Below are positions 9,677 to 55,418 of a DNA stretch of 64,000 nucleotides, piece by piece; position 1 is the first letter of the stretch, and each line of letters opens with the position of its first letter. The position numbers and the translations under genes were made by a program. This DNA is from Gammaproteobacteria bacterium (GTDB taxonomy: Bacteria > Pseudomonadota > Gammaproteobacteria > JABCZS01), in contig JAJFKJ010000018.1 in assembly GCA_021773275.1 (NCBI GenBank), positions 46,390-110,389 on the forward strand, in the 5' to 3' direction. Under the pieces are notes generated by a model. That model did not search any database and was not told the DNA's origin. It saw nothing but the letters and a program-made list of their open reading frames with translations.

Positions 9677-10828
9677 ATGTCAGTTGAAAAAATGTATCGT
9701 ATTCTCCCTGCTTTTATCGCAATTTTTTCATTACTTGCATGCGGTGGCGATGCCCATACGCAGTTACCCCCTAAGGTTACCGTTGAGCAAGTCAAGCGCC
9801 AGGACGTAAAAGAGAGCAAAACATATATTGCGACTATTGAGTCCATCAGCACTATTGATTTGGTGCCACGCGTAGAAGGCTATTTAATCGAGCAACATTT
9901 TAACGGTGGTGATGATGTAGAGGCCGGGCAGTTGCTGTTTAAAATTCAGCAAGAAGAATATATTGCAAACTTAAAACAAGCACAAGCCGATCTTTACAGC
10001 GCACAAGCCACCCTAACAAATAACACGCACATGTTGAAGCGTATAAAAGACCTAGCAGAAAAAGACTTTGCTTCGCAGTCTGATGAAGACAGAGCAGAGG
10101 CAGATTATGAAACAGCCTTGGGTGGTGTTGAGGCTGCGCAGGCTAACCTCATTAACGCCGAATTAAATCTTTCTTATACAGAAATTATATCACCGATAAA
10201 TGGACGCATTGGTTACCCAAAAGTATACGTTGGTGATTTGCTTGCGCCAAGGACAGGCGTTATTACAACGGTTGTGCAGCTTAACCCGATTCGTGCCGTT
10301 TTCGCTATGAGCGAAAGTGATTTACTTAATTTAAAACTCAATAATATCAATGATTCGCAGCAGGCGATTAATGAATCGTTTACGCCCACTATTCAATTCC
10401 AAAATGGAAACTCATATCCGATGGAAGGCGTGATTGAGTCAATGGATAATGTCATCAATGCAGGAACAGGCAGCATTACGGTAAGGGCATTGTTTGAAAA
10501 CCATAACGCGATATTATTACCCGGGCAGTTTGTAAATATAATTTTGCGCAAAGGTGAGCCGCGCATGGCCTTAACGGTTCCGGCTTCCGCTGTTCTGTAC
10601 GATAAGCAGGGGTACTTTGTGTTAATTGTCAACGGAGAAAATACCGTTGAGGCAAAATACATTGAAGAAGGCGTCAAAAACAATAAGTTTGTAGAGGCAA
10701 TTTCTGGTTTAAAAGAAAGTGATCGCATCATTACGGTAGGTTTGCAAAAAGTGCAGCCAGGCATGGTAGTAGATCCAGGTGCGGCATCTGAACAGCAAAG
10801 CGAAAAAAACGAGAAAAAACGTGAGTAA
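9677..10828 (+). CDS. efflux RND transporter periplasmic adaptor (membrane fusion protein), lipoprotein
   Basis: Lipobox FSLLAC|GG. HlyD/AcrA-like features follow: a coiled-coil hairpin with QAQADL..AQANL, and [15 protein letters not shown]. The start could be 9671, 9677 or 9692. Confidence 0.85.
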
Positions 10829-13800
10829 AAACGACGCGCAGAAAAAAAAGCCTTTTTCTGAGATATTTATTAGACGGCCGCGTTTTGCCATCGTTATTTC
10901 TACGGTATTTTTATTAGCGGGGTTTATCGCTCTTCAAGTTATCCCGGTTTCACAGTTTCCTAATATAACACCACCGCAGGTAAACGTTACCGCAAGCTAT
11001 CCTGGGTCTTCTGCTGAAGTGGTTGAAGCTACTGTTGCTATCCCTATCGAAGAACAGGTCAATGGTGTTGAAAATATGCTGTACATGTCATCAACCAGTG
11101 ATAACAGTGGTGACTATAGCTTAACTGTAACTTTTGAAATAGGCACAGATCCTGATATCGCATCTGTTAACGTGCAGAACCGAGTTGCACTAGCAGAACC
11201 TGTATTACCTGACGAAGTAAAGCGCACGGGTATTAGTGTTAAGAAGCAGTCGTCATCATTTTTAATGGTTATTGGTGTAATATCACCCAACAGCACTTAT
11301 GACCCTTTATATTTAAGCAATTATGCAAGCATTAATGTGGTCGATGCGCTTGCGCGTGTTCCTGGCGTTGGTAATGCAGCTTTGTTTGGTGCACTTAATT
11401 ATGCTATGCGTATTTGGTTAGACCCTGATCGCATGAGTAATATGCAGGTTACGACCGATGACGTTACGAAGTCATTACGCAGTCAAAATATACAAGCATC
11501 TATCGGGCAAATAGGATCGCCTCCAACGATAGATGACCCTGCACATCAATTTAACTTACACGCACGTGGTCGTCTTAAAAGCATTGAGGAATTCGAAAAC
11601 GTCATTGTTAAGGTAGGCGCTAACGATAGCTTGGTTCGCATAAAAGACATTGCAGATGTGGAGCTTGGTGCACAAAGCTATGCCTCATATAGTGAGCTTA
11701 ACAGCGTGCCTGCAGCTAATGTCGCTATTTACCTGTTGCCAGGGGCAAACGCAATGCAAGTTGCGGAAGATATTATCAAAGAAATGAAGAGCATTGGAGA
11801 AAGTTTCCCTGATGACATGATCTATGAAATACCCTATGACACGACATTGTTTGTAAAAGAAACCATGCAAGAAGTAATGATGACTTTGTTGTTCACCTTT
11901 GCTTTGGTGGTGATAGTAACGTTTGCGTTTTTAGGGGATTGGCGTGCAACGCTTATTCCAACCTTAGCTATTCCCGTGTCCTTAATAGGAACTTTTGCTT
12001 TTCTGATAGCCTTGGGCTTTACCATGAACACAATCACCATGTTTGCTTTAATTTTGGCAATTGGTTTGGTGGTGGATGATGCCATTATTGTTGTGGAAAA
12101 TGTGTCTCGCTTATTGCGCGATGGGGAATATACGCCGGTTGAGGCGGCTATTGAATCGATGCGAGAAATTACAGCACCCATTGTTTCAACAACGTTAGTA
12201 ATTTTGGCGGTATTTGTGCCGGTGGCATTTTTGCCAGGTATTGAAGGAAAAATGTACCAACAGTTTGCGGTGACTATTTCCGCTTCTGTGATCATTTCAT
12301 CTATTGTGGCGTTAACGCTAAGCCCTGCAATGTGTGCGCTTATTCTAAAAAAAGACTACGAAATGCCAAAGTTTCTCGACAGATTTCAAGCATTGCTTTA
12401 TAGGGCGCGTGATTTTTATGTGGAAAAAGTAAAAGTATTGCTAAACCATAAAAAATGGGTGGCCTTATCTATTGTTGGCGTTTATGTTGCATTTAAAGTT
12501 ATCTACGGCATCGTGCCTACAGGGTTCTTGCCAACCGAAGACCGTGGCGTGATCTTTGTGAGTGCGCAACTTCCCAATGCAGCAACTATCGACCGTACAG
12601 CAAGAACCATGACAGACATTCAGAAAATCATCACCGCCACCCCTGGGGTGAAAGATATTTTTAATGTAAATGGTTTTAATATTATTAATGGTGCGACCGA
12701 GTCTAACGCAGGCTTATTAGTGGCCGTGCTGGAGGAGTACAAAGATCGCCCGAAAGAAGCAAAACATTTTTTCAAGCTCTTAAGAGATTTGCAAATGCAG
12801 TTGGCGGCTTTATCTTCTGCAAATATTAACGCGTTTTCCCTGCCGGCTATTGAAGGTGTAGGTACAACAAGCGGATTTGATTACTGGCTGCAAGACACTA
12901 AGGGCCAGACGTCACAAGAATTAGCGGCTGCTACCAATGCAATGATTGTTTCAGCAAATCAAGAAAAAGAGTTGCAAGCGGTATTTAGTACTTTCGATGC
13001 AAATATATTACAGTATTTCGTGGATATAGATGTAGATAAAGCAGAAAACATGGGTGTCTCGCTTAACGATATTTACACGACCATGCAGGCGCAATTAGGC
13101 TCATTTTATGTCAATGATTTCAATTATATTGGCCGTGTGTTTCAGGTTATTATCCAGGCGGATAAAAAATTCAGAATGGATTTAAGCGATATTCCTCGGC
13201 TTTATGTGCGTAACAAAAAAGAAGAGATGGTGCCCTTGGGCACACTGATCAATATCGAGCCAATACAAGCACCGCAATTGATAACCCGATATAATCTGTT
13301 TCGTGCCGCGCAAATCAATGGTGGCGCAGCACCAGGGTACAGCTCAGGTGATGCAATTAAAACTATGCAAACGCTTTCCCAAGAAAAAATGCCGGAAGGT
13401 TTTAATTATGCATGGTCATCTTTGTCGTATCAAGAGGTGCAGCAGGAAGGCAATATTGGGATTATTTTCTTACTGGCACTTATTTTTGCTTATTTGTTTC
13501 TAGTTGCAAACTATGAGAGTTTTGGCCTGCCAATAGCTGTATTGGTTTCTATAGCTTTTGCATTATTGGGTGCAGCCATTGCAATCTGGATAGGACCCAC
13601 TAACAACAATATCTATGCACAGATTGGCCTGATCTTGTTGATTGCTTTAGCCAGTAAAAATGCTATTTTGATTGTGGAATTTGCTGCCGATGCACGTAAA
13701 GAAGGCGCTAGCATTTTTGATGCAGCAGTTAAAGCAGCTCATCTGCGTTTTAGAGCAGTGATGATGACGGCCTTTGCCTTCATTATTGGGGTGTTGCCGC

Positions 13801-46564: not shown

Positions 46565-47413
46565 ATGCTAAACAAAGACTTACAAGCTATATCGATAACC
46601 CTGCCTGGCAGCAGTATAGAGGCATACGCTGCCTATGCTAACGCTATACCCATGCTTTCCCAGGAGCAAGAATTTGAGCTTGCTCGTCGCCTACAAGAAG
46701 ACAACGACCTTGATGCAGCCCGTGAGCTAGTCCTTAGCCACCTGCGCTTTGTTGTGCGCGTAGCGCGCGGTTATTCTGGCTATGGCCTGGCTGTGGCAGA
46801 CCTCATTCAAGAAGGCAATATTGGCCTGATGAAAGCCGTTAAACGCTTTGATCCGAAAATGGGGGTGCGCCTGGCTGCCTACGCCGTGCACTGGATTAAA
46901 GCAGAAATGCATGAATTTATTTTACGTAACTGGCGGATTGTGCGTGTTGCAACCACAAAATCGCAACGCAAATTATTTTTTAATTTACGCAAAATGAAAA
47001 AACGCTTGGGTTGGTTCAGCGAAGAGGAAATTAAAGGTGTTGCAAGCGATCTGGATGTACCAGCAGATACCGTGCGCGAAATGGAAGCACGCTTAAATGT
47101 ACATGATACAGCTTTAGATGTGCAATACGACGGTGAGACCTATGCCTTGCCAGCGCCGCAGCTTGAAGATCACCAAGCTAACCCGGCATTAATGCTCGAA
47201 CAGCATAGCGAAAATGAAAACATTAAAATGCAACTTCACAGTGCATTACTGACACTCGGCGAACGTGAGCAAGTTATTTTACAAGAACGTTGGCTACAAG
47301 AAAAGAAAGCCACATTACAAGACCTGAGCAAGCGTTTTGGTGTTTCTTTGGAACGCATCAGACAGCTAGAAAAAGCCGCACTTAAAAAGCTAAAAGATCT
47401 AATTGCCGCGTAA
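46565..47413 (+). CDS. rpoH: RNA polymerase sigma-32 factor
   Basis: [26 protein letters not shown] and the RpoB box QRKLFFNLRKMKKRL. Start at ATG 46565. Confidence 0.95.
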   Translation: MLNKDLQAISITLPGSSIEAYAAYANAIPMLSQEQEFELARRLQEDNDLDAARELVLSHLRFVVRVARGYSGYGLAVADLIQEGNIGLMKAVKRFDPKMGVRLAAYAVHWIKAEMHEFILRNWRIVRVATTKSQRKLFFNLRKMKKRLGWFSEEEIKGVASDLDVPADTVREMEARLNVHDTALDVQYDGETYALPAPQLEDHQANPALMLEQHSENENIKMQLHSALLTLGEREQVILQERWLQEKKATLQDLSKRFGVSLERIRQLEKAALKKLKDLIAA

Positions 47414-48127
47414 TTCTTTTAAATTAAAGAATTGGCAAATCTGAACACAAATAAACAATGGAATGCCAATAATGGTTGCTGCGGCATTAAAGGCCATTTG
47501 CAATAGAGGTGTATCATTTAGGTGCGGATTCACAAAGGTTAAAATAACAAAAAACGAAAACATATAAACAAATAGCACCCAAAATGTTAACCACATATGA
47601 TGATGCTCAATACGAATACTGGATTTAAATGCGTCAAAAATATGTTTGTTTTCAAGCAGCACGAACATATTGGCAAAATATATTTTTATTGCAATATAAA
47701 AGTAAGCGATAACCAGCAAAAAAGAAGAAATAATAAGCACGGGAATATTAAAAGAGGCCAGCCCCATAACTATAACCATAAAAAGCGATAAAAAATTCAG
47801 CAAACAAACGATGATCACTAAGCGCACATAGTGGGTAAAAAACCCATCAAAAGCATGTTGTGTGCTGATGGGCAGCCCCGCGCCAGCACTGTAGATGCGC
47901 TTAACTATAGGAATAAAAAATACCAAGCCCACCAAGGCTGTTACAAAAGATACCATGACGTCGTTCAGTACCGTATATTCAGCAAGCCCGGTATAGCAGA
48001 TGGTTAATGCTAAAGCGAGAGAAACCACCAAGGCCAGCGAGTATTTGAAGCTGGCAAAATACAAACGAAAGCCCGCGGCAATAACGCTGCGAGGCGATTC
48101 TGGGTTTCTAGGCAAGAATTTAAACAT
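47399..48127 (-). CDS. multi-pass membrane protein of unknown function
   Basis: 242-aa hydrophobic ORF that overlaps the rpoH end convergently by 15 nt. Confidence 0.55.
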   Translation of the reverse strand: MFKFLPRNPESPRSVIAAGFRLYFASFKYSLALVVSLALALTICYTGLAEYTVLNDVMVSFVTALVGLVFFIPIVKRIYSAGAGLPISTQHAFDGFFTHYVRLVIIVCLLNFLSLFMVIVMGLASFNIPVLIISSFLLVIAYFYIAIKIYFANMFVLLENKHIFDAFKSSIRIEHHHMWLTFWVLFVYMFSFFVILTFVNPHLNDTPLLQMAFNAAATIIGIPLFICVQICQFFNLKELRGN

Positions 48128-48501: not shown

Positions 48502-48624
48502 CATGCAAAAAAATGAAGCAAATGGCCCCCTCAAATGAGGGTGTATTGTTTATGGTCATGCAAAAAAAAGCAAAAAAAATTCAAAAAAATGAAAAATACT
48601 AGAGTTTGAGGGGTTGTTGTTCAT
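48502..48624 (+). promoter_or_regulatory. two-unit imperfect direct repeat upstream of the RiPP operon (CATGCAAAAAAA ... TGAGGGnnTnTTGTTnAT, twice)
   Basis: CATGC(A)7-8 occurs at 48502 and 48557. TGAGGGTGTATTGTTTAT at 48536 matches TGAGGGGTTGTTGTTCAT at 48607 in 14 of 18 positions. The second copy overlaps the putative -35. Confidence 0.4.
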
Positions 48625-48672: not shown

Positions 48673-48822
48673 ATGAATAATAATACTAACCCCAACGATG
48701 CAAAATCAGTGGCTGAAATCTTCGAGGTAATTGAAGCAAATGAAGGCGACGTTAATCTAGGTGAAACACGCCAGGGATGTATCTCTGTGCAAGTCCCCAA
48801 TGATGACGAAACTGACGAGTAG
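48673..48822 (+). CDS. RiPP precursor peptide, trifolitoxin-like core (49 aa): MNNNTNPNDAKSVAEIFEVIEANEGDVNLGETRQGCISVQVPNDDETDE
   Basis: Strong RBS (aagggaggaaatATG). It is the first gene of the operon and was missed by the ORF track because it is shorter than 60 aa. It has an acidic helical leader, and NLGETRQGCIS resembles the TfxA core DIGGSRQGCVA. A hairpin follows the stop. Confidence 0.75.
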   Translation: MNNNTNPNDAKSVAEIFEVIEANEGDVNLGETRQGCISVQVPNDDETDE

Positions 48823-48833
48823 CTAAGCAGGTC

Positions 48834-48861
48834 AGGGGGGAGCTTGCTCCCTCCTGTTTTT
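48834..48861 (+). terminator. attenuator-type intrinsic terminator between precursor and modification genes
   Basis: AGGGGGGAG-cttg-CTCCCTCCT forms 9 bp (one G-U), followed by GTTTTT that runs straight into the RBS (aaggagg) of the next gene. Confidence 0.55.
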
Positions 48862-48872
48862 AAGGAGGAAAC

Positions 48873-49937
48873 ATGTCTTTGTTAGTTGCAGATTCAGCGT
48901 TAAGAATACATTGTGTTAATGGCACATGCTATGTTCATCATCCGCTTAAGCAAAAAAGCTTTGATTGCAAAATTTTAGAGAATAAACCTTTAAAAAAACT
49001 GATGAACTATCTTGAAAAGCCAAAATCAAAATCTGATGTTCATGCATTCATTGCAGTTATGTTGAATGTGACGCATGAAAATGCCGCGGAAGCCGCGACA
49101 GAACTAAAGAAAAACGGATTTATAAAAGAAATTGAAAGCCAAGGAATCTCGCTCAGCTGGGAAAAACACAATTGGCGTGAAGCGGGTATTTTACATGAGC
49201 ATACTATCAACACACCGAGAATTTTATATAACAACAAAATGGGCAATATATATGACGTTGCTCTGATGAAGCATTATGTTAAAGAAACCCCACCGCCGGC
49301 AAATCACAAAGAGTACGAAGGCACCAAGATACAGTTAGAAAAACCTGATGTAGATGAAAGCATTACTTTAGATAGTATGCTGCGGGGTTCTAAAAAACCA
49401 GAGATCCTAACTTTTAAGAAGTTGAGTAGACTTTTGTATTATGCATTCGGGAAAATAGGTGATAGGCATATGCAGGTAACAGGAAAGCATATGCGGAAAA
49501 CAGTACCTTCGGGCGGCGCTAGGCATCCTTACGAATTCTACCTTCTTGTACATGACATTGAGGGGCTTGACCCCGGGATATATCACTATCAGTTTAATGA
49601 TCATCATCTGACGGTTCTTCAACTGCGGAATGCATCTTTGGTTGCAAGCTTGATAGATCAGTATTTAGTGATTGACCCTAAGCGACTTTGCTTTTCTCCG
49701 CAGATTGCGATTATCTATTCATGTATGTTTGAGCGTAGCATGCACCGATATCGGTATTCACGAAGTTATCGTGTTATGCAATATGATCTGGGTCATATCT
49801 ATCAGAATTTAGAATTCTTGGCTAAATCCTATAGCTTAAATATATACGCGGGCTACTCTTGTCATGAGCAAAAAATCGAGCAAGCTATCGGCATAGATAG
49901 TATCACTGAATCTTGTATGGGGTATGCAGTATTATGA
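48873..49937 (+). CDS. SagB/McbC-type (nitroreductase-fold) dehydrogenase with N-terminal RRE-like domain, paralog 1
   Basis: VPSGGARHPYEFYLL..GLDPGIYHY and YRVMQYDLGHIYQNLEFLA are SagB-type dehydrogenase hallmarks. The first 90 aa or so look like a small winged-helix domain. Confidence 0.85.
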   Translation: MSLLVADSALRIHCVNGTCYVHHPLKQKSFDCKILENKPLKKLMNYLEKPKSKSDVHAFIAVMLNVTHENAAEAATELKKNGFIKEIESQGISLSWEKHNWREAGILHEHTINTPRILYNNKMGNIYDVALMKHYVKETPPPANHKEYEGTKIQLEKPDVDESITLDSMLRGSKKPEILTFKKLSRLLYYAFGKIGDRHMQVTGKHMRKTVPSGGARHPYEFYLLVHDIEGLDPGIYHYQFNDHHLTVLQLRNASLVASLIDQYLVIDPKRLCFSPQIAIIYSCMFERSMHRYRYSRSYRVMQYDLGHIYQNLEFLAKSYSLNIYAGYSCHEQKIEQAIGIDSITESCMGYAVL

Positions 49938-50998
49938 TAAAAAAGGTTTATTTAAATCCACTGTTAAAAGCCACGAATATATTTTCAGACACCATTAATT
50001 TGGAGGCGGTTTATGATGAGCAATCAATAGCAATGAGCAGAGAATTGTTTATACACACGATTATGGCAATCGCAAATTGTACAGATGCAGACAAAATAGC
50101 AAAATACTTGGCTAAAGTATTTGATCTTGATTTGGCTAGAGCTAGAGATCTCCTGGGAAACCTTCAAAAACATCAAATATTAATAAATGACCTCAGCGAC
50201 TACCCCGTTGATCAAATTAGCATGTGGCAAAATCACAAATGGCTTAATGCGCTTATATACCATCTAAAAAGCCAAAACATCAATTGCATTGATGACAAGC
50301 GCAAAAGCGAAAAACAAGATAGACGAATTTTTCCAAAAAGAGCGCTCAGCAAAAATGAAATTTGGAAGAGAGTCCCGAGTGTAAAATTTGTAAGCTTCCA
50401 AAAGCCAGCCGGAATAGATCTGAAAAAAATTAATGTTGAAAAAACGCTGCTTAAACGCAGCTCATGCTTGTCTCTGCGCGCAAAGAACATTAAAAAAGAG
50501 GAGCTCGGAGAGCTTCTCAGCTTGTCAAATAAGGATTTAGTTTTTTATAGAAGAAAAATAGAAAAATCAACGCGAAGCTTTTATGAGTCAAGATTTATAG
50601 CATTAGAAACATATGTGGTGATTCATAAGGTCAAGGGTATAGAAGCGGGCGTATATTTTTATGACCCGAAAGATCACCAGCTTTGCTTGGTTTCATGGGG
50701 GGATTTCCGTATGCAGGTGGCAGACATTTGTATAGGCCAAACGAAAGCAGGCTCCGGAGCTTTCTCCATATTCATTACAGCATGTTTGGAGCGTTACATG
50801 TCGCGCTACAAACATGAAAGGGCCTATAGAAATTTACTGACAAACACGGCGGAGCTTGCGCAGCAGTATATATTTTTTGCAACGGCCCTTGGGCTAAATA
50901 CCTGGCTTACCCCCGCAATTATAGAGACGCAGGCTGCAAATTTATTAAAAATAGATAATAAAACTGAAATCCCAATTTATACCGTGGCGGCGGGGTAG
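49934..50998 (+). CDS. SagB/McbC-type (nitroreductase-fold) dehydrogenase with N-terminal RRE-like domain, paralog 2
   Basis: LLKRSSCLSLR.., GIEAGVYFYDPKDHQL and ERAYRNLLTNTAELAQ..ALGL. The ATG at 49934 overlaps the upstream TGA (ATGA coupling). The ORF-track start is 49913. Confidence 0.85.
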   Translation: MIKKVYLNPLLKATNIFSDTINLEAVYDEQSIAMSRELFIHTIMAIANCTDADKIAKYLAKVFDLDLARARDLLGNLQKHQILINDLSDYPVDQISMWQNHKWLNALIYHLKSQNINCIDDKRKSEKQDRRIFPKRALSKNEIWKRVPSVKFVSFQKPAGIDLKKINVEKTLLKRSSCLSLRAKNIKKEELGELLSLSNKDLVFYRRKIEKSTRSFYESRFIALETYVVIHKVKGIEAGVYFYDPKDHQLCLVSWGDFRMQVADICIGQTKAGSGAFSIFITACLERYMSRYKHERAYRNLLTNTAELAQQYIFFATALGLNTWLTPAIIETQAANLLKIDNKTEIPIYTVAAG

Positions 50999-51001
50999 TC
51001 A

Positions 51002-51706
51002 ATGAGAAAAACAACAGCAGAAAAAATATATGAACTTGGGTCTTATAGAGTATTAGGAAGTGCAACACAATATGTGGCAGATATGCACCTATATTTACCT
51101 AGCGCTAAGTTTAATAACCATAAGTTATTCCAGGCAAAGCAAGCTTTGGAGTCACCCGCTTTCTTTCAAGTTCTGGAGTCAAGGCATAGCTGTCATAAAT
51201 TTTGCAGTGAAGAGTTGTCTTTAAATAAGATACGTAGTTTACTTCTTTGTGGGTACGGCCTAAAAAGCAGGCATGGTTCTTTCACTGTGCCATTGGCTGG
51301 TGGCTTAGATGTGATGCAATTGAAAGTAGCTTTGAGGGAACGCGGGCGCTGGGGCGCATATGATTGGGATCATGTGGGGTATAGGCTGAATAAAATTAAC
51401 CGCATGCTGAGTGATCCAAATAAGCTGTTCTTTGCAAGGAGCACAGATATAAGTCTGTCCTCAGCCGCAATAGTAATCAGTGCAAATCTTGGGGTTCTTG
51501 CCAAAAGATACACGGCCAGAGCATATAAGTTTGCTTGTATCCAGGCGGGGCATATTGCGCAAAATATTATACTGGAAGCTACATCTTTGGGGCTTAGCAG
51601 TTTAGTGTTGGGCTCATTAAAAGAAGAGGAAATCATCAATTCATTCGGTATTATTTCAGAAAAACCGTTGTATGCAGTAGTCATTGGAAAAAACCTTAAG
51701 GAGTAA
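51002..51706 (+). CDS. nitroreductase-fold (SagB-type) protein, paralog 3, with no N-terminal extension
   Basis: LESRHSCHKF..LSLNKIRSLLLCGYGL and ARAYKFACIQAGHIAQNIILEATSLGLSSLVLGS. 234 aa. Confidence 0.85.
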   Translation: MRKTTAEKIYELGSYRVLGSATQYVADMHLYLPSAKFNNHKLFQAKQALESPAFFQVLESRHSCHKFCSEELSLNKIRSLLLCGYGLKSRHGSFTVPLAGGLDVMQLKVALRERGRWGAYDWDHVGYRLNKINRMLSDPNKLFFARSTDISLSSAAIVISANLGVLAKRYTARAYKFACIQAGHIAQNIILEATSLGLSSLVLGSLKEEEIINSFGIISEKPLYAVVIGKNLKE

Positions 51707-51709
51707 ATT

Positions 51710-52444
51710 ATGCAGGATGTGGCTCTTATATGGGAAGCTATAAATAGAAATCTTGATTTGGCAGGAAGCAGTGTTTCAATTTATCCATTTTGCTACACCA
51801 CGGATTTGATAGCGAGTGTGCCAGATAACAAGTTTTTTATTAAAAATATATCAGCCTCAGGTAGTGATTCTAGCAAAGATATATCATTAAAGAAGGCGCT
51901 GATGGAGCTTGTAGAGAGGGTGGTGTTTATAAAGGAAATGGACCGGGTATATTCAAAAGGCATGGGCAGAGTCAGCTCCAAAGGATGGGCTTGCCATCCC
52001 AGTAAGGCGCGGGCAAAAGAGCAAGCTGTCTTGGAGTTCTACGAAGATCAATGCATAAAAAATGCAGAAAACATTTCAGAAAAACTTAAAAATAAAGTAA
52101 AAAGCCCCGCAAATGACAATGACTTTAATTTTATGGTATTGAAAATAGATAAGGTATTTTTCTCCGCCGTTTGGTTTCTGAAAGACGGGGTTTATTCAAT
52201 AGGTAGTGCTTGCGCTACAAGCTCAGCACAATCCTATAAAAAATCACTGCAAGAAGCTTATGTTAAATGGAAAGCTGGAATTTCAGACAGCATCAGCAAA
52301 GTGCCCGTTACTTTTCCAACAGGGTATTATGAACTTGATGTGGGCTTACCAGAGCCCAGCATTGAACCGTTATACGATGATCTTTTGAATAAGTTAAATC
52401 TTTATATGTTTAAGGCGACAGAATGCAAAACCATATTGCACTAA
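51710..52444 (+). CDS. short YcaO-like protein (candidate cyclodehydratase or partner); functional assignment tentative
   Basis: ASGSDSSKDISLKKALMELVERVVF and GWACHPSKARAKEQAVLEFYED resemble the two N-terminal YcaO/SagD motifs (G.G....A...A..E..ER). At 244 aa it is far shorter than canonical YcaO proteins. Confidence 0.55.
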   Translation: MQDVALIWEAINRNLDLAGSSVSIYPFCYTTDLIASVPDNKFFIKNISASGSDSSKDISLKKALMELVERVVFIKEMDRVYSKGMGRVSSKGWACHPSKARAKEQAVLEFYEDQCIKNAENISEKLKNKVKSPANDNDFNFMVLKIDKVFFSAVWFLKDGVYSIGSACATSSAQSYKKSLQEAYVKWKAGISDSISKVPVTFPTGYYELDVGLPEPSIEPLYDDLLNKLNLYMFKATECKTILH

Positions 52445-53487
52445 GCCTAGAGACAAAAAAAGATATCGTTGATTACGGCGAAAATCTGTATAAATGCGAG
52501 CAAAAAGATGTGAGAGAGATAAGCTTTTCCAGAGGGACGACCGGGAATGTTGATTATGTGTCTTTCTATGGCCAAGAAAAAACTGTTTTTGCCATAAAAC
52601 CCTATCAAAAAAAGTTTCTAAATAGATTAATGTTAGAAAATAATTTCGAGCTAGACGAGCACCGGTTTTGCATTCCCCCAATTGCAGAATTGTTTGTGGG
52701 CGATCTTCTGTATGCCAAGGGAGGCGTGTTTGATCTAAATGAAATACATGTTGCCGTGTTTCTGCCATATTTTGCCCAGTGCAAAAGGACGTTAGCTAAG
52801 AAATCTTTTGTATTTGCAAATCTCATGGAAGAGCGTTTTGTAAAAATGGCACAAAGTACAATGCAGAAATTTTCAATGAATTTAAAGCTAACAAGCCAAG
52901 ATTTTGCGAATTGGGTATCGCTGCACGAGGGCTTCCATAACAGTGGGCCATTACCTCTGTTTTCAGGCAAGGTCAATAAGTTTAGTAAAAAGTCATATGG
53001 CTTTGTTGAAGAGCTCAGAGTCGACCTTTCAATTATCTACTTTATTTTAAACTGCATACCTAGTGAAGGCAGAAAGTCGTTAATAAATGTGGTTTGCTTG
53101 GTTATTGCTGACCGTGTTTTTCGAGCAGCACGCTTCCACTTTAACACTAGTCATGCCCCCAGGCATAACATGTATGCAAAAATGGTAGAAGGTGACGCAG
53201 CAATTTGTCTGCTTTGTTTATTGGTTCACAATGAGCTACTTGATTTGCCAGGTCGAAAATTTGTCTTTTGCTCGAAAAAGTTATCGGCGGCAATAAAGCC
53301 AGTTTTAAAAGATATCTATGATTATGAAAAAAGCATAAACAATAAAGACAGTTTTTATGCTAGTGAACCGAGTTTCTGTAAATATTTACGACAGAAGTAC
53401 TTTAAATTGAATGCTGGTGTGCGTTTATATTTAGAAGCTAATTCCTGCACAAACTGTACTTACGAGCTGGTATTTAGGCCTGTATGA
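52423..53487 (+). CDS. HExxH-motif protein (candidate leader/follower metallopeptidase or HExxH-type peptide hydroxylase)
   Basis: HEGFH at nt 52924-52938, with EE 28-29 residues downstream (gluzincin-like spacing). It overlaps the upstream gene by 22 nt and the downstream gene by ATGA. Confidence 0.7.
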   Translation: MQNHIALSLETKKDIVDYGENLYKCEQKDVREISFSRGTTGNVDYVSFYGQEKTVFAIKPYQKKFLNRLMLENNFELDEHRFCIPPIAELFVGDLLYAKGGVFDLNEIHVAVFLPYFAQCKRTLAKKSFVFANLMEERFVKMAQSTMQKFSMNLKLTSQDFANWVSLHEGFHNSGPLPLFSGKVNKFSKKSYGFVEELRVDLSIIYFILNCIPSEGRKSLINVVCLVIADRVFRAARFHFNTSHAPRHNMYAKMVEGDAAICLLCLLVHNELLDLPGRKFVFCSKKLSAAIKPVLKDIYDYEKSINNKDSFYASEPSFCKYLRQKYFKLNAGVRLYLEANSCTNCTYELVFRPV

Positions 53488-54752
53488 TAAATATAAAAAT
53501 CACACGCAAACTAATTTCACACGCGTTCCCAATTATCAGCTCCAGCCTGGGTTTATTGCTAATGGGCGTTACTGACACGATTGTTATTTCATTGTTAGGT
53601 GAATCAGCGTTAGCCGCACAATCTCTAGCCTCGTTTATCCATATGGCAGTTTTTATGTCCTTGGTTGCATTCGTCTTCCCTGTTGCCAATCTGTATAAGT
53701 TAAATCAACATGACGCTATGCCAATATTAAAGTCGGGGCTTGTGTTAACAGTAGGGTTAATATTACCGCTTACTGCAGTGTATCTATTTGGCATCCCTGA
53801 TTTTATTGTCTATTTTCTGAATTCAGAACAGCAAGACTTGTTTAATGCTTATTTTAAAACTATTGCAATGAGCTTGCTGCCTGGAGCGTTGTTTTTTTAT
53901 TGTCGCATGCTGCTGTATACGCAGGTTAAGCCAAAGCAGATTGGGCACTGGATTGTTATATGTATTATTTTAAATGCAGGGCTAGATTATTTGATTTTAC
54001 ATGTTTTTGAAAGCCCTGGGGTTGTAGTGCAAGGTATTGCATTAATAACAGTGTTGGTTTTTTGTATATTGGTACTTTTAACCAATCATAGCTTGCCGGA
54101 AGACAAAAAATTACAGAAAATAATTAATGTTAAAAGCAACAAGCAATCTTATTATGCAGTGTTAAAAACTTCTGGGCCAGCCGGTATTACAGCGTTGGGC
54201 GAGTATGGTTTTTTTGCCGTGCTTGCAGTGATGGTAGCGTTATATGCACCATTAGAAGCGGCTTCATACCGAATTATCTTACAGCTCGAAGAAATGCTAA
54301 TTATCATTTTTTATGCATTTGCAAGAGTGCTGTCGCTAGAAGTCTCGCAGGAAGATGGCGGATACAAAACACTCAAGTCCAGCTATTATCACGCAACAGC
54401 CTTGCTATTGCTGGTGGTTTTCCTGCTACCTATTTTTCATCCGTTTGTTTTAAAAGTATACGGTATTAATATCAGCTTTTCACAGCATTACTTCATTATC
54501 ATTATGTTATTGCTTTTCGCAGAAGCGTTGATGTTATACATCTGTGCGTTTTTGTGGGGCTTTGCTCGCTATACCATCGTGGCGATCATCACTTGTACGG
54601 TAAACTGGGGCATTATTCTTCCCATGCTTTGGCTTTGGCCGCCAGCTCAAATTGAAACCTTCTACTATGCCCTGATCGCCAACTATGCTTTGATAGCTGT
54701 GCTGCTTTTAATTTTTTGTAGAACTTGCAACATAACTAAATATAACCTATAA
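53484..54752 (+). CDS. MATE-family efflux transporter (candidate exporter/self-immunity)
   Basis: N-terminus KLISHAFPIISSSLGLLLMGVTDTIVISLLGESALAAQSLA is the MatE signature. 422-aa multi-pass membrane protein. Confidence 0.85.
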   Translation: MINIKITRKLISHAFPIISSSLGLLLMGVTDTIVISLLGESALAAQSLASFIHMAVFMSLVAFVFPVANLYKLNQHDAMPILKSGLVLTVGLILPLTAVYLFGIPDFIVYFLNSEQQDLFNAYFKTIAMSLLPGALFFYCRMLLYTQVKPKQIGHWIVICIILNAGLDYLILHVFESPGVVVQGIALITVLVFCILVLLTNHSLPEDKKLQKIINVKSNKQSYYAVLKTSGPAGITALGEYGFFAVLAVMVALYAPLEAASYRIILQLEEMLIIIFYAFARVLSLEVSQEDGGYKTLKSSYYHATALLLLVVFLLPIFHPFVLKVYGINISFSQHYFIIIMLLLFAEALMLYICAFLWGFARYTIVAIITCTVNWGIILPMLWLWPPAQIETFYYALIANYALIAVLLLIFCRTCNITKYNL

Positions 54753-54771: not shown

Positions 54772-55029
54772 GTGTACCGAATAGTAATACATCGCCAAGT
54801 AAAAAAGCAATTGCGGTCCTTGCCAGGGGTTACACGAAACCAGGTGGTCGAGCAAATTCAAAAGTTAGGCCATAATCCGCATGATAATCGACTTGACATC
54901 AAAAGACTAAAAGGAGAGGTGCGCTTTCGTTTACGTGTTGGTTTATGGAGAATTGTTTTTGAGAAGCATGAAGATGTAAAAATCATCAGTATTGAAAAGA
55001 TAGGTGCGAGAGGGGATGTGTATAAATGA
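54772..55029 (+). CDS. type II toxin, RelE/ParE superfamily (HigB-like gene order)
   Basis: 85 aa. KRLKGEVRFRLRVGLWRIVFEKHEDVKIISIEKIGARGDVY is the RelE-fold C-terminal pattern. GTG start. Confidence 0.82.
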   Translation: MYRIVIHRQVKKQLRSLPGVTRNQVVEQIQKLGHNPHDNRLDIKRLKGEVRFRLRVGLWRIVFEKHEDVKIISIEKIGARGDVYK

Positions 55030-55325
55030 ATTTACAAATAATTAAGTCTGTAGAAGGTGAGGCAGAATACGTTTTGCTGCCTATAAATGCTTATAAAGCC
55101 TTAAAGCATCAGATCGACAAAGTGATTGATGAAGACTACGCACCCTTCAAGCTTGAAGACTACGTCGACAACCCCGTTGCTTTGGCAAGAATAAAAGCAA
55201 ATTTAACACAAGAAGAGTTAGCGCAACGCATGGATGTATCGCAAGCCTACATCAGCAAGCTTGAATCGCAAGATGCTGTTTCAGCCAAGGTTATGGCAAA
55301 AGTGATGACTGCGCTTCAGCAGTAG
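55026..55325 (+). CDS. type II antitoxin with XRE-type HTH (HigA-like)
   Basis: LARIKANLTQEELAQRMDVSQAYISKLES forms the HTH. ATGA overlap with the toxin stop. Confidence 0.82.
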   Translation: MNLQIIKSVEGEAEYVLLPINAYKALKHQIDKVIDEDYAPFKLEDYVDNPVALARIKANLTQEELAQRMDVSQAYISKLESQDAVSAKVMAKVMTALQQ

Positions 55326-55337
55326 CTTTTATACACA

Positions 55338-55418
55338 GAAATATTTTATTATGCCTTAATCGCCAACTATGCTTTAATAACATTAATCTTGTTTATTAAC
55401 GTGAGAAGGCGTGTATGA
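55338..55418 (+). pseudogene. relic 3-prime end of a MATE gene (..[26 protein letters not shown])
   Basis: Nucleotides 55347-55380 match 54662-54695 in 29 of 34 positions, and both encode YYALIANYALI. The relic stop (55416-55418) overlaps the plsY ATG. Confidence 0.6.

Follow-up and report, generated by a model that had tools for sequence, protein, structure and literature searches.

A probable tiarin (trifolitoxin-like) biosynthetic operon in a gammaproteobacterial chromosome

A probable addition to the tiarins

Seven genes, designated A to G, lie on the forward strand of a 64,000-nt stretch of DNA from Gammaproteobacteria bacterium (contig JAJFKJ010000018.1, positions 46,390 to 110,389; referred to here as the window) and very probably constitute a biosynthetic operon for a tiarin, a trifolitoxin-like peptide made by ribosomes and modified after translation (a RiPP) that would carry a Gln-derived warhead and act on arginyl-tRNA synthetase (ArgRS). 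The operon spans positions 48673-54752 of the window. Its gene content, the homologies of the encoded proteins, the conservation of the short open reading frame (ORF) A, and the collinearity with a tiarin cluster of Legionella birminghamensis can all be read directly from the DNA; every chemical step and the target discussed below are modeled on work with trifolitoxin. An initial inspection of this DNA (the original prediction) had proposed a trifolitoxin-family pathway in a gammaproteobacterium, and this proposal is borne out by the RQGC core of the precursor, the pair of SagB-like dehydrogenases, and the collinear L. birminghamensis cluster.

Trifolitoxin (TFX) inhibits ArgRS after import by YejABEF and trimming by PepN, and clusters resembling tfx have been named "tiarins", with 79 representative clusters distributed over nine phyla (Travin et al., bioRxiv 10.64898/2025.12.02.691738, December 2025). 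The described traits of these clusters include a precursor gene with a strong Shine-Dalgarno (SD) sequence upstream of a dehydrogenase pair, an aliphatic/acidic leader motif (motif 1), and a core Gln motif (motif 2), and where a cluster contains an aminoacyl-tRNA synthetase (aaRS) gene, the amino acid preceding the conserved Gln is the one for which that enzyme is specific (Travin et al.). In the window, the adjacent genes B and C encode just such a TfxB/TfxC-type pair of SagB-like dehydrogenases, and the 49-codon gene A lies 50 nt upstream. Because Arg precedes the conserved Gln of the A product, the published rule predicts an ArgRS inhibitor.

The locus is thus a new tiarin member from a subgroup of which published and partly tested examples already exist, and it creates no new category, since its closest relative is both published and in experimental use. 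The novelty that the original prediction had seen in a different bacterial class does not stand, as the published census already includes Legionella, Acinetobacter, Pseudomonas, Xenorhabdus, Pantoea, and Acidithiobacillus (Travin et al.). What makes additional members worth describing is that tiarins are newly recognized Trojan-horse inhibitors of aminoacyl-tRNA synthetases, and any further cluster may offer a scaffold for antibiotics; the present locus adds a chromosomal variant without dedicated immunity genes from a gammaproteobacterial lineage. The operon comprises the following features:

48673-48822, + strand: gene A, 49 residues, TfxA-like precursor peptide (ORF with SD sequence)
48833-48856, + strand: hairpin with T-run between A and B, the top terminator-like site of the region
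48873-49937, + strand: gene B, 354 residues, SagB-type dehydrogenase dependent on flavin mononucleotide (FMN), TfxB-like (TIGR03605)
49934-50998, + strand: gene C, 354 residues, second SagB-like dehydrogenase, TfxC-like (PF00881)
51002-51706, + strand: gene D, 234 residues, small flavoprotein of nitroreductase fold, probable TfxF counterpart (PF00881)
51710-52444, + strand: gene E, 244 residues, short divergent YcaO-like protein, TfxE counterpart (remote homology)
52423-53487, + strand: gene F, 354 residues, DUF6421/PolE-like protein with HEGFH (profile and fold match)
53484-54752, + strand: gene G, 422 residues, MATE-family exporter, TfxD counterpart (PF01554)

The length of C is counted from the ATG at 49934, the mechanical start of that ORF being a TTG at 49913. 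B/C and F/G each overlap by 4 nt in an ATGA, E and F overlap by 22 nt, and 3 nt separate C from D as well as D from E. The predicted strand, coordinates, and overlaps are therefore correct, but the spacing of 0-4 nt claimed for the remaining junctions does not apply to A and B, which are 50 nt apart.

Relatives of the operon

In L. birminghamensis (UGNW01000001, 3013733-3034902; locus L085), genes A-B-C-D-E-F-G are found together with a fourth dehydrogenase, a GNAT protein, and an ArgRS. All seven genes are collinear with those of the window, with identities of 52% (A), 45% (B), 41% (C), 38% (D), 27% (E), 38% (F), and 33% (G) and E-values from 1e-10 to 1e-112. Travin et al. include the L. birminghamensis DSM 19232 cluster among the tiarins (their Supplementary Data 1 and 2), tabulating its precursor as MENQVNSIDEIFEISEIEKDMNGVVARQGCISVQTPNASESKEEANAN and describing its operon as three nitroreductases, two proteins without an assignment, a MATE protein, and a fourth nitroreductase. 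The same study, which regards this cluster as a close homolog of TFX, compared it gene by gene with tfx and found that its ArgRS protects Rhizobium against TFX (Travin et al.). Beyond gene order, the two loci have in common the core RQGCISVQxPN, the acidic leader with EIFE, and a hairpin downstream of gene A. Of these two, the L. birminghamensis locus adds the fourth SagB-like dehydrogenase, the GNAT, the resistant ArgRS, and a mobile element, whereas the window has the insertion at folB/plsY (see below), and its E and F proteins are roughly 30-35 residues shorter than those of L. birminghamensis and of two further loci, L004 and L005. The mobile element of L. birminghamensis surrounds the cluster with genes for an integrase, a transposase, a relaxase, type IV secretion (TraM, VirB8, TraG), and AbiEii; the window copy occupies a fixed chromosomal site.

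The other relatives fall into two clades, that of the window itself (L001 and L003) and a Legionella-type clade (L004 and L005, together with L. birminghamensis). L001, a contig from a metagenome-assembled genome (MAG) of an uncultured gammaproteobacterium, carries rpoH, a gene for a 250-residue membrane protein, and folB, followed by A-B-C-D-E-F, with the precursor MMNNNNINPTNEKSVTEIFDIIEENEGDINLGEARQGCISVQIPNEDEADE. L003, a JGI metagenome contig, carries B to G and then directly plsY-tsaD-rpsU-yqeY-dnaG-rpoD. L004 and L005, both Logan contigs, have A to F with a GNAT gene, a fourth SagB-like gene, and a MATE pump gene on the opposite strand, and their precursors end in ..VLRQGCLSVQTPN... In the window, L001, and L003, the ORFs are intact at one chromosomal site and the catalytic motifs are preserved despite protein-level divergence of 35-55%, which argues for maintained function.

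The tfx cluster of Rhizobium anhuiense T24 encodes the precursor TfxA, the FMN dehydrogenases TfxB and TfxC, each bearing a RiPP precursor recognition element (RRE), the MATE pump TfxD, the YcaO-like TfxE, a third dehydrogenase (TfxF), a phosphotransferase (TfxG), and the GNAT immunity protein TfxH (Travin et al.). Common to tfx and the window are the RQGC core, the dehydrogenase pair, the third dehydrogenase, the YcaO-like protein, the MATE pump, and the predicted ArgRS target. The gene order differs, with the pump and YcaO genes preceding that of the third dehydrogenase in tfx; TfxG and TfxH are peculiar to tfx and the DUF6421 gene F to the window, and TfxA ends two residues after its Cys whereas the precursor of the window continues for 13. 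The tfx gene content given in the original prediction was mistaken, since tfx already has TfxF, TfxE, and TfxD (Travin et al.). Much of the accessory set held to distinguish the two loci, namely the third nitroreductase, the YcaO, and the MATE pump, is therefore common to both; the HExxH protein and the C-terminal tail do set them apart. What does separate the locus from tfx is gene F, the extended tail behind the Cys, and the absence of genes of the TfxG/TfxH type, and the product would be a congener distinct from TFX, as had been anticipated. A tblastn search of a plasmid collection with TfxA found nothing, and a TfxA alignment search of the GTDB representatives yielded no locus.

The precursor peptide

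The product of gene A consists of an acidic/aliphatic leader (..VAEIFEVIEANEGDV..), a core (..GETRQGCISVQVPN), and an acidic tail, DDETDE. The RQGC of the core is the same tetrapeptide that is modified in TFX. Its gene is preceded by a strong SD sequence, GGGAGGA, and a short ORF with the motif RQGC[IL]SVQxPN is kept in four other loci (L001, L004, L005, and L085), with RQGC invariant and a strong SD in all five loci compared. The strong SD together with the conserved ORF and core indicates that A is not a chance ORF. The leader motif EIFEVIE of the window likewise has its equivalent among these precursors, where EIFE[VI].E is kept. The original prediction had staked itself on a SagB/nitroreductase signal in the three dehydrogenases and on conservation of the short ORF; the SagB/nitroreductase scores hold (see below), and the ORF recurs in the four loci just named.

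Downstream of the Cys, at codons 37-43 of the precursor (48781-48801), the sequence [IL]SVQxPN shows strict conservation across the window, L001, L004, L005, and L085, placing a second Gln after Val. Some tiarin precursors have two cores, and by analogy the second Gln may mark a second modification site in the A product. The long conserved tail (SVQxPN) with its second Gln is of interest in its own right.

Between A and B lies a GC-rich hairpin of 10 bp followed by TTTTT, with a folding energy of -18.4 kcal/mol. Each of the five loci compared has a hairpin in this position, differing in sequence but similar in stability. The element resembles an intrinsic terminator or an attenuator, and we infer that it would raise or stabilize the precursor transcript.

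The dehydrogenases and the YcaO-like protein

Proteins B, C, and D were expected to be SagB/nitroreductase-type enzymes, and each matches TIGR03605, PF00881, or both. Against TIGR03605 (SagB; cut-off 78.4 bits), B scores 109.4 bits and C 71.7, just under the cut-off; C passes PF00881 at 26.7 bits (cut-off 23.5), and D matches PF00881 (Nitroreductase) at 55 bits. A profile of B homologs finds McbC (6gos; E-value 1.7e-15), CyaGox (5lq4), and BmdC among PDB structures. Both B and C have N-terminal extensions of about 140 residues, where an RRE would be expected; for these Pfam offers a weak winged-helix match in B (HTH_Crp_2, E-value 0.013) and no match in C. We infer from the description of tfx in Travin et al. 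that D would be the counterpart of TfxF.

The assignment of E is less direct. This protein has no significant Pfam or NCBIfam match, scoring 11.6 bits against the YcaO family PF02624 where 25.7 is required, and its homologs reach 11-15.7 bits. However, when 1.84 billion representative proteins were searched exhaustively with HMMER, a profile of three E sequences retrieved 20 of them, and 8 of 10 distant matches that were scanned pass the Pfam YcaO cut-off with 38-60 bits. An hhalign comparison of the E family with those distant proteins gave a probability of 99.15% and an E-value of 3.9e-19 over 155 columns, a value that is not independent, the comparison set having been picked with the E profile, whereas the Pfam scores of the distant proteins are independent. 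The two ExxE motifs that bind Mg/ATP (E66/E69/R70 and E109/E112) are invariant. These transitive Pfam matches and the profile-profile alignment place E in the YcaO superfamily, of which its sequence makes it a short and divergent member. The predicted "mini-YcaO" is accordingly right in substance, though E itself falls below the Pfam threshold.

Structure adds little here. An AlphaFold2 model of E, built from three sequences, is poor, with a predicted local distance difference test (pLDDT) score of 51, and its Foldseek list shows the Methanopyrus kandleri YcaO amid noise, which lends weak support; the E profile found no match among PDB sequences. The alignment of E covers approximately positions 50-211 of the 333-column YcaO profile, and the 244-residue protein ends in ..LYMFKATECKTILH without a proline-rich terminus. 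Azoline-forming YcaO proteins have a full-length domain with a proline-rich C-terminus.

A DUF6421/PolE-like protein

The original prediction had noted HEGFH in protein F. That motif is present, and an HExxH protein is absent from tfx as described, but F is no generic HExxH protein: it is DUF6421/PolE-like. Its metal motif, H168-E169-G-F-H172...E196, reads HExxH-X23-E, with H168, E169, H172, and E196 invariant in the family alignment, and it matches the HE/DxxH-X21-23-E motif reported for the PolE family (PMC12614342). Among PDB sequences, the F family profile finds SmPolE/SnPolE (9j3g, 9j2e) with an E-value of 4e-7. The AlphaFold2 model of F has a predicted template modeling (pTM) score of 0.76 and a core pLDDT of 80-98, and its top six Foldseek matches are all PolE (probability 1.0, template modeling score 0.43-0.51). 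F itself has no Pfam match and stays under the threshold of PF19985 (25 bits), where two homologs, one from L019 and Lbir_1371, score 29.6 and 23.7 bits, respectively.

A zinc protease was considered for F and rejected: yeast DPP III appears only in seventh place of the Foldseek results (E-value 0.017), behind PolE in ranks 1-6, and the resemblance between PolE and DPP III is explained in the PolE paper (PMC12614342).

PolE, the founding member of DUF6421, acts in polyoxin biosynthesis, where it desaturates free L-isoleucine (PMC12614342). It shares with F the HExxH-X23-E motif, profile similarity, and fold, at an identity of 16-20%; PolE acts on a free amino acid, however, and F, encoded in a RiPP operon, would act on a peptide. 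On the strength of sequence and model, F is a DUF6421/PolE-like putative Fe/pterin oxidase that would tailor the peptide. If so, oxidases of the DUF6421 family might also tailor peptides. In the published survey, the Legionella-type F gene is entered as "not_found" in the domain table, and neither DUF6421 nor HExxH is mentioned in the text (Travin et al.).

A hidden Markov model of F detected homologs in 19 of 86 loci examined, and DUF6421/PolE-like genes recur in tiarin-type loci, including L006, L007, L012, L014, L015, L017-L019, L021, and the window. In every locus with both an F homolog and an identifiable precursor, Q[GC]C is followed by Ile or Leu. The Legionella-like group has RQGC[IL]S; EQCCIR occurs in Micavibrio, in a gammaproteobacterial MAG, in three Xenorhabdus species, and in Terricaulis; and three Streptomyces species have [KM]QGCIR. 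QGC-type precursors from loci without an F homolog have Val after the Cys in L008 and Ile in L038 (KQGCIC), and the TFX precursor has Val (Travin et al.). Isoleucine being the substrate of PolE, F may act on the Ile/Leu after the Cys; the co-occurrence comes from about three independent lineages and is put forward as a hypothesis, not as a result.

The Micavibrio locus (L006, MAG contig QFQB01000044) also bears on target specificity. A gene for a class I tRNA synthetase of Glu/Gln type (316-1845) and a GNAT gene (10479-10964) flank this locus, the precursor of which ends in EQCCIR, and from its sequence it fits the rule relating the residue before the Gln to aaRS specificity, being a locus outside the published precursor list.

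Export and self-protection

G is a MATE exporter, as had been predicted, with 28.7 bits against PF01554 (MatE), above the cut-off, and 59.5 bits against TIGR00797. Its likely counterpart TfxD is sufficient on its own to guard a sensitive strain against TFX, some housekeeping ArgRS enzymes such as that of E. coli are naturally TFX-resistant, and a self-immunity gene (GNAT or resistant aaRS) is frequent in tiarin clusters without being universal (Travin et al.). By analogy, protection of the producer may rest on the pump, which is conceivable because TfxD alone protects, or on a resistant housekeeping ArgRS as in E. coli; the argS gene of the producer lies outside the window.

Two of these threads can be joined into a bolder and distinctly tentative claim, which we regard as possible but doubtful: that F is the first DUF6421/PolE-type Fe/pterin oxidase acting on a ribosomal peptide, modifying the Ile/Leu after the thiazoline, and that this lineage makes an ArgRS poison with export or an intrinsically resistant ArgRS as its sole protection.

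A proposed pathway and its alternatives

By analogy with TFX, the operon would work as follows. Gene A would supply a leader-core precursor, in amounts relative to the enzymes set by the hairpin that follows it in the mRNA. B and C would bind the acidic/aliphatic leader and turn the Gln of R-Q-G into the tiarin fluorophore, E would convert Cys37 to a thiazoline at the expense of ATP, D and F would carry out further oxidative tailoring, and G would export the product and contribute to self-protection. A target cell would then import the peptide, its aminopeptidases would trim it, and the modified warhead would inhibit ArgRS. The naturally minimal set of three dehydrogenases, a short YcaO, a DUF6421 protein, and a pump could ease reconstitution of the pathway and help to settle the disputed structure of the fluorophore.

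Several points weigh against this reading. No product has been observed. The 13-residue tail after the Cys is one such point, and the cyclodehydratase activity of E is uncertain because about 100 C-terminal residues of YcaO and the proline-rich end are missing. No leader peptidase is encoded. Unlike its nearest relatives, the operon has no GNAT, second ArgRS, or fourth dehydrogenase within the 64 kb of the window by tblastn, the immunity queries being three GNATs, the L. birminghamensis ArgRS, and an E. coli ArgRS sequence. The likeness to tfx runs through the L. birminghamensis bridge and the figure legend and description in the published paper rather than through direct sequence comparison, and for TFX itself the fluorophore structure is being revised (Travin et al.).

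The missing immunity genes invite a different view, in which the operon is a reduced or domesticated derivative, either inactive as an antibiotic or making a peptide that does not serve to kill competitors. Neither the window nor L003 has the GNAT, ArgRS, or fourth dehydrogenase known from L004, L005, and L085, the shortening of E and F relative to that clade fits with reduction, and the remnant of a MATE gene described below records a past rearrangement at the operon end. Yet the ORFs are intact and the catalytic motifs kept in three genomes (the window, L001, and L003), and the precursor core is strictly conserved. Moreover, the absence of immunity genes does not imply inactivity, since a pump alone, as with TfxD, or a resistant ArgRS, as with the housekeeping enzyme of E. 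coli, can suffice. We therefore consider a derivative of this sort unlikely.

Less probable still is a conventional cluster for a linear azol(in)e peptide of the microcin B17 or streptolysin S type, with an azole product and a target other than an aaRS: such clusters, too, combine SagB/McbC-type dehydrogenases (B matching McbC as noted above) with a YcaO-like protein, an exporter, and a short precursor, but the conserved core has a single Cys and no tract rich in Ser/Thr/Cys, no E1-like/ThiF-like or McbB-like family match was found among the seven operon genes, E is truncated as a YcaO, there are two SagB paralogs with putative RRE-type extensions instead of one, and the RQGC motif and the entire gene order are those of a catalogued tiarin cluster. 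The overlap with the microcin B17 and cyanobactin machinery (McbBCD, CyaGox/ThcOx) thus extends to the fold of the SagB/McbC-type flavin dehydrogenase and the presence of a YcaO-superfamily protein; the window operon differs in lacking an E1-like partner, and the hallmark of the tiarins, to which we assign it, is a modification centered on Gln.

Chromosomal setting

Among 80 other gammaproteobacterial loci taken from around tsaD, 37 have folB next to plsY in divergent orientation, with approximately 60-370 bp between them. In the window they are separated by 6.9 kb, and it is this difference that identifies the operon and a neighboring toxin-antitoxin pair as an insertion at the folB/plsY site. 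The window shares the site with L001 on the folB side and with L003 on the plsY side; the insertion is therefore old in this lineage. The plsY-tsaD arrangement of the window was found in none of the 80 best tsaD loci. The G+C content of the operon is 39.0%, as against 44.0% and 42.4% in the flanks.

The region upstream of A offers few clues to regulation. Its 186 nt contain a 21-nt A-rich direct repeat in three copies (CATGCAAAAAAATGAAGCAAA and variants, 48502-48598), and no convincing sigma-70 promoter was recognized in this region. A promoter scan returned 17 candidates where 20.9 were expected, at or below chance, with none convincing upstream of A, and an Rfam scan detected two tRNAs, both distant from the operon. 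Farther upstream, between rpoH and folB, positions 47399-48127 encode on the - strand a multi-pass membrane protein of 242 residues that is kept in L001 and L002; it has no Pfam or NCBIfam match and was not found in the 80 other gammaproteobacterial tsaD loci.

Two features lie beyond the 3' end of the operon:

54772-55325, + strand: ParE/RelE-type toxin (85 residues) and helix-turn-helix antitoxin (99 residues) (PF05016, PF01381)
55338-55414, + strand: MATE gene remnant (orphan 3' end) that duplicates the end of G in diverged form

The toxin-antitoxin pair adjoins the operon and is outside the pathway. It sits between the operon and plsY, and because the syntenic L003 lacks it, plsY there following G directly, the pair is probably a separate acquisition. 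Immediately 3' of the pair, 55338-55414 is an orphan copy of the terminal 26 codons of a MATE gene. The start of this relic forms a 42-nt direct repeat with positions 54654-54695 of G, 83% identical, in which 13 of 14 codons encode the same residue (the second is changed from T to I) despite seven nucleotide differences. The relic looks like a scar left at the operon end by cassette replacement, by rearrangement, or by recombination between diverged alleles.

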